Assembly: GCA_035288465.1 (NCBI GenBank)
Contig: DATEAH010000005.1
Span: 67,636-131,635, forward strand
Length of the DNA: 64,000 nucleotides
Source: Patescibacteria group bacterium
Lineage (GTDB): Bacteria; Patescibacteriota; UBA1384; DATEAH01
Reading direction: 5' to 3'
In this document: one piece after another, positions 22,195-24,724 of the stretch
Position numbering within the stretch: position 1 is the stretch's first letter
Layout of the letters: every line of letters starts with the position of its first letter
Program-made: the position numbers and the translations under genes
Notes under the pieces: generated by a model
The model's input: the letters and a program-made list of their open reading frames with translations, nothing else
What the model was told of the DNA's origin: nothing
Database searches by the model: none

Positions 22195-22653
22195 TTAATG
22201 TTGACGAGTGGCTCGATGCTGACCTTTTTGATATTGCGTATAATCATAAAGGGCTTCAAAGAATTGTTGAAGTTTGTCAAAATCTTGAACTATAATAACC
22301 TGATTGGTTATAATGCTTGAACATAACCCTCTTAACATTTTCATTTCTTCCCGAAACGCATCCTGTCCAGAAAAAGTCTCAACACCATCACTTGCCTGCA
22401 AGTCATCCCGGGCACCTTTAGCCAATAAATAATTTGGCTCATTCTTAAAATGCCGAGTATGAATCCTTAGGGTTTCAATATCTTCAATCTCTTGAACAAC
22501 AGAATTTAGAAATTCTTGAGCTCTGCCAATTGCCCAAAGAGTTTTTTGATCACGGTTGCCCCTTTCAATATTAACTAAGGCAGTTTTCACCCTAATTGTT
22601 AACAATGCCGTAATGGAAATCATCTCTCTATTAACAAGTTGGTCAGTCGCCAA
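22195..22653 (-). CDS. hypothetical protein
   Basis: 152 aa ORF, last gene of GC-elevated cluster. Confidence 0.45.
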   Translation of the reverse strand: MATDQLVNREMISITALLTIRVKTALVNIERGNRDQKTLWAIGRAQEFLNSVVQEIEDIETLRIHTRHFKNEPNYLLAKGARDDLQASDGVETFSGQDAFREEMKMLRGLCSSIITNQVIIVQDFDKLQQFFEALYDYTQYQKGQHRATRQH

Positions 22654-22705
22654 TCAGATCACCCCTTTTCTTGATGTAGATTTGAATAACAATCTTTGTC
22701 CAAAA

Positions 22706-23752
22706 TTAATCGTCCCATTCGGGAGGATAAGGAAAAGTGTCTAAATCGTAACCGACCTCCACCAAATCACGATCAATAGCTCTTTTAATACCGGTTTTGG
22801 CTTCAAAATCTAATTGGGCAGCCAGGCGCCGGTGAATGGCTGGCCAATCCTCTCTTGGCAAATACTTCTCGGTTGACCAAGCAAAGTCAGTCCAAGGATT
22901 ATCTCGCATCCGCTTTAAATATCCTGCTAAATCTAAGGTTTCGAAATAGGCGCCATAAAGATGCAAGCTAGTTGAAAGTCCATTCATCTCGCCCGGTACA
23001 ATTTGAATTCCCAAGGCATTCGTGAGCCTAATTGCCCATAACCTTTGGTATTCCGACAAAGCATACATATTCATAGGCCAGCCATTGAAAAGATCATGGG
23101 ACCGAAATATTATGACCCAAACTAGATTATAGGTTTCTTCTTCACAATTCGGATCCTGCAAAAGCCGGAATTGGATCATTTGCAGACAGGGGGCATCTTC
23201 AGAAAAGTTATCAATTTGTGGAATCCAAGTATGCAGCATGTAGTCGCGACCAAAACGATGTTTTGACATCCAGTCTTTTTGCATTTTCTCAATCATTAAC
23301 TTGTCTTGCGATTCAAAATATGTCGTGGCCGGTAAAACAACTTGTACCTCTCTTTCTAAGCGCTGATGGTAAGAATAATCCCAATAAGCTTCCTTTTCAT
23401 CCTCTTCGGTTCTAATGGTAATATCTTTCACCCAGCCATCATGAACTCCAAAACAAACCTCATCTCGATAAACTAACAAACCCTCGGGGGCATCACAACA
23501 ACCAAAGCTATGCAATCTCGGTTCATTAAGCGGCTTTCGGATTGTGTAACCCATGCACGCATCAAATCCGAGCGGAAAGCCTTCTTGATGTTTGGGGGTC
23601 CGTTCCCTTGATCCCAAAAACCAGCAAGCTAAACAAAGTTTGTGCCAGACTTCAGGGACATAATCTCCAACAATACCGATGAACGGGAGCGTACCTTGTT
23701 GTGGTAATTGTGTTAAGTCTTCGATAAGAGCGCGTTCTTGCTGATTCGCCAT
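22706..23752 (-). CDS. divergent thymidylate-synthase-superfamily enzyme (ThyA-like fold, function uncertain)
   Basis: 349 aa from MANQQ; ThyA-like GFPL motif, active-site region DAPCLQMIQF (PCL instead of PCH) and FRSHDLFNGWPMNMYAL matching ThyA QRSCDVFLGLPFNIASYAL. Confidence 0.7.
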   Translation of the reverse strand: MANQQERALIEDLTQLPQQGTLPFIGIVGDYVPEVWHKLCLACWFLGSRERTPKHQEGFPLGFDACMGYTIRKPLNEPRLHSFGCCDAPEGLLVYRDEVCFGVHDGWVKDITIRTEEDEKEAYWDYSYHQRLEREVQVVLPATTYFESQDKLMIEKMQKDWMSKHRFGRDYMLHTWIPQIDNFSEDAPCLQMIQFRLLQDPNCEEETYNLVWVIIFRSHDLFNGWPMNMYALSEYQRLWAIRLTNALGIQIVPGEMNGLSTSLHLYGAYFETLDLAGYLKRMRDNPWTDFAWSTEKYLPREDWPAIHRRLAAQLDFEAKTGIKRAIDRDLVEVGYDLDTFPYPPEWDD

Positions 23753-23798
23753 TACTGATCGACCTCCTCGGGTTTTGCGCGGAGTTATAGATGGGATT

Positions 23799-24170
23799 TC
23801 AACGGCAGTACGGGCTATCGCGCCAACCGGCTTCAATATTCTGAATTTCTGATTTAATATCCTCAACCACATCCATTCCACTGGCTTGTAATGCAGCTAC
23901 CATTTCTCTGGTAAAAAACACGCAATCTATTTTCCCATTAACTAATGCCTGATAACTCGTTTCTGTTTCTCGAGGTGGTTTGGGAATAGGACTGACAACA
24001 AAAAATATATTTGCCCGCTCTGCTGGCCGCAGCCCAAACATTAAACCTAATTCTTGGATTTGACTAATTTCTACCGGAGTTAATAGCTCTTGAGCCGCCT
24101 CATCGATAACTAACATTTCTCTGACTTCAAGTTGGTAAGGAAAAAATTCAGGTGAATCTTTAGTTGCCAT
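23799..24170 (-). CDS. hypothetical protein
   Basis: 123 aa ORF between dCMP deaminase and TS-like gene. Confidence 0.5.
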   Translation of the reverse strand: MATKDSPEFFPYQLEVREMLVIDEAAQELLTPVEISQIQELGLMFGLRPAERANIFFVVSPIPKPPRETETSYQALVNGKIDCVFFTREMVAALQASGMDVVEDIKSEIQNIEAGWRDSPYCR

Positions 24171-24184
24171 GGGTACCGACCTCC

Positions 24185-24724
24185 TTAAATAACCTTGCGG
24201 GTTGTTTTGGTTTCATAATTATATTGTTCGACGGCAATATTTGATTCCATCGCCAGTTGGATCGCAAGCTCAAAATCGGTTTTTTCTTCTCCTTTTTCAG
24301 CCTCATCAACTCTTTTAACCCGAGCATATTCTTGGGCAAATACAATCCTTTTTACCCCATAAGCGGCTTGCCTTTTCATGCATTGAGTGCAACATAATCT
24401 CGAAATATACAAAGTGCTACCATCAAATTCACTTCGCGAACGAGAAAGCGTGGCGTTGTCTTCAGCGTGCAAACCCCTACAAGCGTTTCCATGCTTTTTT
24501 GCACAACCAACATGAGGATTATTACAATGCGGATGATCAGGCAATGGTCCATTATAGCCGGTATCAATAATATGATGATTGGGATTGGCATAAACGCAGG
24601 CGACCCGATTATTAATACAGACTGGTCTTTTTGCAAATATAGCCACAATATCCATAAAGGTTTCGTCCCAAGACGGACGTTCGGGTTCGAAAATATCTTC
24701 TTGGTCTTTGTCCACTCGACTCAC
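24185..24724 (-). CDS. dCMP deaminase (ComEB-like zinc deaminase)
   Basis: HAEDNA zinc-binding motif and CCTQC (PCxxC-type) motif; probable GTG start, a second in-frame GTG at 24715 has a better-spaced gggagg RBS. Confidence 0.8.
   Translation of the reverse strand: MSRVDKDQEDIFEPERPSWDETFMDIVAIFAKRPVCINNRVACVYANPNHHIIDTGYNGPLPDHPHCNNPHVGCAKKHGNACRGLHAEDNATLSRSRSEFDGSTLYISRLCCTQCMKRQAAYGVKRIVFAQEYARVKRVDEAEKGEEKTDFELAIQLAMESNIAVEQYNYETKTTRKVI

Follow-up and report, generated by a model that had tools for sequence, protein, structure and literature searches.

Enzymes of the thymidylate synthase (TS) fold pair with a dCMP deaminase in the route from dCMP via dUMP to dTMP served by canonical ThyA, and the same pairing is found in phage pyrimidine modification, as with the dUMP hydroxymethylase of SPO1 and the dCMP hydroxymethylase of T4 (PMC8989533). 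The phage pathways leading to 5-hydroxymethyldeoxyuridine (hmdU) also comprise accessory genes for dTTPase/dTMPase, dNMP kinase, 5-HMUDK and aGPT-Pplase (PMC8989533), and an Asn at position 177 of ThyA picks uracil over cytosine, with cytosine-specific TS homologues having Asp there (PMC8670742). We have analyzed a 64,000-nucleotide stretch (the window) of contig DATEAH010000005.1 from a Patescibacteria bacterium of the candidate phyla radiation (CPR), in which four open reading frames (ORFs) follow one another on the minus strand, encoding a dCMP deaminase (gene 1), a 123-residue protein (gene 2, p123), a divergent TS-like protein (gene 3) and a 152-residue protein (gene 4, p152). The reading that we favor, with a probability of roughly 0.72, is that the cluster is a vertically inherited housekeeping operon forming thymidylate from deoxycytidylate, which is the plainer of two routes considered in the original prediction, a note made on this DNA before any database search. 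Such a pathway is largely ordinary; it would be carried out by an under-annotated, unusually divergent enzyme subfamily with a new, clade-specific small partner.

The four ORFs (Table 1) are separated by gaps of 14, 46 and 52 nt, and the terminator-like hairpin 3' of p152 is the sole such site between positions 21900 and 25300; given the short gaps and the single hairpin after p152, the four genes look like one transcription unit. For gene 3, the start may be an ATG at 23752 with the Shine-Dalgarno sequence GAGGAGG (348 residues) or a GTG at 23755 (349 residues). A 41-residue hydrophobic ORF just ahead of the deaminase gene may encode a co-translated small membrane peptide belonging to the operon; it has no counterpart in L001, L007 and L008 (assembly GCA_004196255.1), where L-numbers label the 47 related loci that were retrieved for comparison of neighborhoods. 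The four-gene cluster originally described is present as such in the window, but only its first three genes recur together in related loci.

Gene 1 belongs to PF00383 (46.3 bits against a cut-off of 25, E 4.2e-12), matches the dCMP deaminases of PHROG_174 (5e-32) and, among solved structures, dCMP deaminases at E values from 3.9e-13 (2hvv, from S. mutans) to 2.7e-7, with the human, T4 and cyanophage enzymes also recovered, and carries the zinc motifs HAE (residues 86-88) and CTQC (residues 112-115). Its product is thus by family a dCMP deaminase of predicted activity, in line with the ComEB-like enzyme originally proposed. We also considered an anti-phage dCTP deaminase (NF041025) and rejected it, as gene 1 reached only 41.6 bits against a cut-off of 400, over residues 83-145 only; this enzyme and the dCTPase of PADLOC have a multidomain architecture of roughly 440-630 residues vs. 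179 for gene 1. Similarly, a defense system was set aside: of the four products, only the deaminase had a match in PADLOC, and that a weak local one to the dCTPase (36 bits, positions 436-492 of a 630-position model).

The product of gene 3, annotated at NCBI as a hypothetical protein (HLC38724.1, in an assembly that also carries HLC38723.1; locus tags VJJ80_01150-01160), matches the methanogen-type TS model TIGR03283 (1.2e-13, 51 bits against a curated cut-off of 174.55), the TS of PHROG_160 (7e-6) and Pfam PF00303 (4.9e-4, 19.8 bits against a gathering threshold of 24.3, over residues 163-275 only), in agreement with its earlier description as a long and divergent member of the TS superfamily. 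Searches of the PDB with this single sequence or a 4-sequence profile returned no match at E limits of 1 and 10, and an AlphaFold2 (AF2) model built from 4 sequences had a mean confidence (pLDDT) of 45.6, unusable for fold search. A family profile of 120 sequences with the window protein as first row, designated A2, matched 131 PDB chains, the best being ThyA at 6e-15 and over the catalytic core only (profile positions 81-248); all of the 60 matches listed were TS except for two CMP 5-hydroxymethylase entries. An hhalign comparison with E. coli ThyA gave a probability of 83%. By these data, the gene 3 product has the TS fold and is a member of the superfamily.

Alignment with E. coli ThyA places Cys190 at the position of the nucleophile Cys146, Arg218/Ser219/Asp221 at Arg166/Ser167/Asp169, Asn229 at Asn177, Tyr129 at Tyr94, Arg170 at Arg127 and His265/Tyr267 at His207/Tyr209, the latter two being residues that contact the 3'-OH of deoxyribose in ThyA. 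Eight of these residues (C190, R218, S219, D221, N229, H265, Y267 and Y129) are invariant in an 11-sequence alignment of the subfamily, and the window protein carries the family residue at each of the 22 positions with 90% or more conservation among 120 members; Asn at the 177 position likewise reaches this level. The C-terminus forms an extension of roughly 70 residues ending in a conserved FPYPxEWD motif (YPPEWD in the window). The presence of Asn229 instead of Asp argues against a dCMP hydroxymethylase or dCMP methylase, and both candidates were dropped on this basis. In a broader form, the enzyme could act on a ribonucleotide or a cytosine nucleotide, as do MilA and PolB, CMP/UMP C5-transferases from nucleoside-antibiotic biosynthesis, and the phage dCMP hydroxymethylases and methylases, and the A2 profile indeed matches the CMP 5-hydroxymethylase MilA (5b6d, 3e-13) almost as well as ThyA; however, we regard this as exceedingly improbable, since Asn229 stands where cytosine-specific enzymes have Asp (PMC8670742), His265 and Tyr267 equal the deoxyribose-contacting residues of ThyA, the conserved neighbors (dCMP deaminase and dUTPase) produce dUMP, and neighbors typical of a biosynthetic cluster are absent.

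In the housekeeping route to dTMP that we favor, the zinc deaminase (His86/Glu88, Cys112/Cys115) would hydrolyze dCMP to dUMP, which the TS-fold enzyme would then hold via Arg170, Arg218, Ser219, Asn229, His265 and Tyr267; Cys190 would attack C6, and C5 would gain a methylene from a reduced pterin carrier, to be reduced to the methyl group of dTMP. The chemistry of this second step is modeled on that of ThyA, the residues for which are in place, and the one-carbon carrier is probably 5,10-methylene-tetrahydrofolate. As a guess, the YPxEWD tail would close the active site in the manner of the ThyA C-terminus.

The distribution of the TS-like family and its gene neighbors bears directly on this route. 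A word-indexed search of 5.8 billion proteins returned four clusters, one of them 100% identical over the aligned length and the others at 64, 57 and 51%, while an exhaustive profile search across 1.84 billion representatives recovered 553 relatives with E<=1e-3, 232 of them with E<=1e-10, placing hundreds of representatives at 50% identity in the family. All 120 sampled full-length members matched TIGR03283 best (best E 1.4e-45), and 102 of them also matched PF00303 (E<=1e-3). As the C-terminal motif served as the search pattern in genomes and metagenomes, these scans sample the YPxEWD subfamily only; its hosts comprise a Pacearchaeota archaeon (DPANN), Gribaldobacteria and Saccharibacteria (CPR), as well as 17 metagenome contigs. 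The TS-like gene is adjoined by a dCMP deaminase gene in the window and in L001, L007, L008/9, L015, L016/17, L011/20/21 and L029, by a dUTPase gene in L007, L011, L016, L018 and L024, and by a thymidylate kinase (Tmk) gene in L012, L023 and the viral locus L033, with a class II ribonucleotide reductase (RNR) present in L011. As annotated, these neighbors would overwhelmingly supply dUMP or use dTMP, and the deaminase, dUTPase, Tmk and RNR fit a TS predicted to form dTMP. The original prediction had named grouping with the ordinary ThyA of related organisms as evidence against itself; in essence the window protein does group with its relatives, clustering with CPR/DPANN TS-like proteins in a context of nucleotide metabolism. 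As to a second TS, neither ThyA nor ThyX was found elsewhere in the 64-kb window, the only stretch covered, nor were Tmk, dUTPase or RNR.

Several peculiarities of individual relatives were recorded along the way. Six family members of 650-736 residues (P0037, P0050, P0063, P0079, P0083 and P0108) are interrupted by inteins, some with a LAGLIDADG homing endonuclease, and are on that account not informative as domain fusions; inteins typically reside in essential enzymes of DNA metabolism, which speaks for the housekeeping reading. Another member (P0064) has an N-terminal RNase H-like domain. In one assembly, the L008 lineage has its TS-like gene broken into two overlapping ORFs (L009:3476-5198), possibly through a frameshift or an insertion, or by an error in assembly. 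In Gribaldobacteria, L012:5989-8977 (PEWP01000057.1; same in L026) carries genes for a TS-like protein of the YPxEWD subfamily, Tmk, ThyX and DeoC in a row.

Several points weigh against a dTMP-forming role for the gene 3 product. The protein scores below every curated TS threshold, and Pfam scans of 34 window ORFs detected no dihydrofolate reductase (DHFR) or other folate enzyme. A relative in Gribaldobacteria, 32% identical, adjoins Tmk and a bona fide ThyX (PF02511, 5e-52); should the TS-like enzyme and ThyX both form dTMP, one of them would be superfluous in a small genome. Moreover, we know of no full biochemical characterization of any member of the family, which also appears to be without a solved structure of its own, as the PDB matches listed are bacterial, eukaryotic or viral TS or MilA and cover the core only. 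As the residues in question are common to TS and dUMP hydroxymethylase, the two cannot be told apart by sequence, and even for archaeal ThyA the cofactor and one-carbon carrier are unsettled (PMC9012536, PMC9931769).

These points lend some room to a different proposal, in which the TS-fold enzyme acts as a C5-hydroxymethylase on dUMP or modifies C5 in another way, the operon makes a non-canonical pyrimidine for modified DNA, and p123 and/or p152 are parts of the pathway. In its favor, phage hmdU pathways likewise have a deaminase and a TS homologue as their core (PMC8989533), the window enzyme diverges strongly and has a unique C-terminal region, two uncharacterized proteins adjoin it, and the Gribaldobacteria relative beside ThyX hints at a non-redundant function. 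Nevertheless, the operon and its flanks contain no other hmdU-pathway gene, p123 is devoid of conserved polar or catalytic residues except T87, p152 is not conserved, the surroundings are those of a vertically inherited, syntenic stretch of chromosome, and the genes of relatives keep the company of dUTPase, Tmk and RNR expected for a normal TS. In addition, the TS-like protein, p123 and p152 had no detectable relatives in 50,697 phage GenBank records. The original prediction had viewed the pairing as a hallmark of phage-type hypermodification; with Asn at the N177 position, no hmdU accessory genes nearby and no phage relative, we judge this proposal unlikely, and the locus is not evidence for DNA hypermodification. 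Doubtful as well is a variant confined to CPR/DPANN, whereby the TS-like enzyme together with p123 would form 5-hydroxymethyl-dUMP or another C5-substituted dUMP, or else dTMP by way of a non-folate one-carbon or reductant system. If true, it would mean a cellular lineage with modified thymidine or a dTMP route suited to cofactor-poor symbionts, either of which would account for the relative adjoining ThyX.

The vertical inheritance of the housekeeping operon finds support in gene order. In four diverged relatives (51-64% TS identity), a tRNA trio, the deaminase, p123 and the TS-like gene are kept in the same order; the trio, made up of tRNA-Arg(tcg), tRNA-Lys(ctt) and tRNA-Leu(tag), precedes the deaminase gene in L001, L007 and L008. 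TrxB, dodecin and MiaA come after the TS-like gene where the contig extends, with the TrxB-dodecin pair seen in L002-4 and L008. In the window, the neighbors of the cluster are tRNAs, DUF membrane proteins, a short-chain dehydrogenase (SDR), RmlC/D, TrxB, dodecin, MiaA and PyrG. Because this order is conserved across several CPR lineages, the locus, as judged from synteny, is a vertically inherited chromosomal block and not an island. Within the window, the tRNA trio is itself split by three inserted genes (25019-27310; Table 1), whereas it is contiguous in L001, L007 and L008. Between the trio and the deaminase, L001 (3391-3465) and L007 (743-805) each carry a tiny Cys-rich acidic ORF, the two being similar to each other (MCDDCKCGGEKKKEGEEKKSKEEE and MGCCGCGDEKEEESEKKDEE, respectively); these are absent from the window.

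Base composition was also compared, as the original prediction had put the cluster at 45-48% GC against about 35% in its flanks. The measured values are 41.6% for the cluster, 38.1% for the window and 38-40% for the flanks, with 6.6% of equally long windows being as GC-rich as the cluster. Per-gene GC (41.5, 41.1, 43.3 and 37.5% in gene order) compares with 37.8 +/- 3.9% in 41 other ORFs (z of 1.4 or less), z-scores of GC at third codon positions (GC3) are 0.0, -0.6, 1.4 and -0.8, and 13% of windows equal or exceed the tetranucleotide distance of the cluster from the window average. The cluster is therefore compositionally not distinct, falls within the gene-to-gene spread and gives no compositional sign of foreign origin. 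The case for a horizontally acquired island, phage-derived or mobile and inserted beside tRNA genes, would draw on the directly adjoining tRNA-Arg and tRNA-Lys, on a GC content slightly above the window mean and on distant family members, with 23-37% identity, that reside on viral contigs. Against it, GC, GC3 and tetranucleotide usage are within normal spread, and four diverged lineages share one gene order running from the tRNA trio over the three core genes to TrxB-dodecin. Neither an integrase nor a repeat boundary was seen among the ORFs. In a neighbor-joining tree, the nine viral homologues included fall outside the CPR/DPANN clade and do not have its C-terminal tail, while p152, which alone resembles a recent insertion, has host GC. 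We thus deem an island very unlikely; the horizontal origin raised earlier does not hold up, with normal composition and synteny from the tRNA trio through dodecin on related Patescibacteria contigs.

As previously noted for both small proteins, p123 has no recognizable motif, and no match in Pfam, PHROG, NCBIfam or PADLOC, nor by sequence search in the PDB. Its family is genuine and very rare, amounting to 7 clusters in 5.8 billion proteins, and was seen solely directly upstream of a TS-like gene (L001, L002-5, L007, L008-10 and L014), and the TS-like genes with an upstream p123 form a single clade in the tree. An identical copy is annotated in a metagenome-assembled genome named 'Patescibacteria group bacterium', on contigs of up to 206 kb. 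No fusion of p123 with TS (a 'Rosetta stone') was found among TS-family members. The AF2 model, from 7 sequences, is a confident alpha/beta structure with a pLDDT of 79.8 and a pTM of 0.73; the fold search that had been suggested for it, run with Foldseek against PDB and BFVD, returned no significant match (best E 0.45-0.48). Resemblances to BRCT and CheY-receiver domains (TM 0.2-0.3) were not significant, KorB (E 0.67-1.3) was dismissed as noise, and a pseudo-receiver, suggested by an acidic pair after strand 1 and Thr87 after strand 4, was dropped for want of significant similarity. As the invariant positions of p123 are hydrophobic residues plus Thr87, a catalytic role seems unlikely. We take p123 to be a candidate partner protein specific to this clade, alpha/beta in structure and probably devoid of catalytic activity; that it might serve the deaminase/TS pair as a scaffold or regulator is speculation.

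For p152, named a hypothetical protein at NCBI, Pfam, PHROG, NCBIfam and PADLOC likewise gave no match, and there was no homologue among the 47 related loci and no PDB, phage or plasmid match; a similarity to Csm2 (E 0.08) was dismissed. Its 90% cluster has 3 members, namely two start variants of the window sequence and the representative. Elsewhere, the gap between the TS-like gene and TrxB is empty in L002-4 and L008, and holds an unrelated 145-residue ORF in L001 and a dUTPase in L007. The GC content of p152 (37.5%) is host-like. By these comparisons, p152 is a strain-specific ORFan and a recent insertion, co-transcribed with the cluster and outside the conserved module, and it would have no demonstrable role in the proposed pathway.

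Beyond the locus, the window exhibits a jump in GC to 48-57% at 62000-64000, vs. a mean of 38%, which is far more anomalous than the TS cluster and may represent foreign DNA or an assembly join. This segment contains a 459-residue ORF on the plus strand (62407-63786), without a match in Pfam or Rfam, whose product has a lipoprotein-like signal peptide. Many large window ORFs lack a Pfam match, e.g., 1959-2978, 29157-30251, 30928-32055 and 35727-37520.

Table 1. Features of the operon, its surroundings and other parts of the window (positions are those of the window; SD, Shine-Dalgarno sequence; T2SS, type II secretion system).
Feature	Position	Strand	Remarks
dCMP deaminase, gene 1	24185..24724	-	179 aa, GTG start; PF00383, PHROG_174 and PDB matches
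p123, small alpha/beta protein (predicted), gene 2	23799..24170	-	123 aa; no family match
TS-like protein, gene 3	22706..23755	-	348/349 aa; divergent archaeal-type thymidylate synthase homologue
p152, ORFan, gene 4	22195..22653	-	152 aa; no family match
Intrinsic-terminator-like hairpin and T-run	22136..22161	-	3' of p152; ends the transcription unit
Candidate hydrophobic leader ORF	24721..24846	-	41 aa (MMVRGLNKLVMGLVGILIIVGAVVIAVVAETILFGWLLSGR); SD AAGGAG; stop overlaps the deaminase GTG start
tRNA-Arg(tcg) and tRNA-Lys(ctt)	25019..25166	+	divergent from the operon; upstream synteny anchor
Thioredoxin-reductase-like flavoprotein (TrxB)	21079-22005	-	Pfam Pyr_redox_2, 2e-49; downstream synteny anchor
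Dodecin	20863-21066	-	Pfam Dodecin, 1.7e-25; downstream synteny anchor
DUF5676 gene	25438-25710		inserted in tRNA trio
DUF2214 gene	25740-26165		inserted in tRNA trio
Short-chain dehydrogenase	26236-27039		inserted in tRNA trio
Bacterial RNase P RNA	9167-9540	-	175 bits
Type IV pilus/T2SS ATPase and platform protein pair	38014-40773	-

Thymidylate synthesis is essential, and the nucleotide metabolism of CPR and DPANN organisms is minimal and poorly annotated. The sole TS found in the window is labeled a hypothetical protein because it falls under all curated thresholds, and metabolic reconstructions would wrongly score such genomes as being without dTMP synthesis. Characterizing one member of the family would fill this annotation gap and bear on the one-carbon carrier of archaeal-type ThyA.

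Compared with described systems, the deaminase shares the HAE and CxxC zinc ligands of the ComEB-type bacterial dCMP deaminases (PF00383; PDB 2hvv), but its score against the ComEB equivalog (59.7 vs. a cut-off of 219 bits) is far below, and the usual PCxxC motif reads CCTQC. In contrast to the phage modification pathways, the locus is without dTTPase/dTMPase, dNMP kinase, 5-HMUDK, aGPT-Pplase or glycosyltransferase, has Asn and not Asp at the specificity position, sits in a cellular, syntenic context and has no match in the phage records searched. With canonical ThyA (PF00303; E. coli, PDB 2tsc), the TS-like protein has the catalytic core and equivalents of the active-site residues in common, and the pairing with a dCMP deaminase for the dCMP to dUMP to dTMP route is also seen here; it differs in having Leu for His147 and His for Trp80, in an N-terminal third and a C-terminus that are not alignable, and in that no DHFR was seen near its gene. 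Relative to archaeal ThyA (TIGR03283), whose biochemistry is as sparse as that of the TS-like family (PMC9012536, PMC9931769), the window protein exceeds the 201-position model by about 150 residues, with internal insertions and the C-terminal extension, it comes from a CPR bacterium and not from a methanogen, and it is paired with the clade-specific 123-residue protein. Archaeal ThyA is nonetheless the best-scoring curated model for this protein and its sampled relatives alike, and the two have in common the TS core, with the nucleophilic Cys in (P)PCLQ, the RSxD motif, the Asn and the SLHxY motif.

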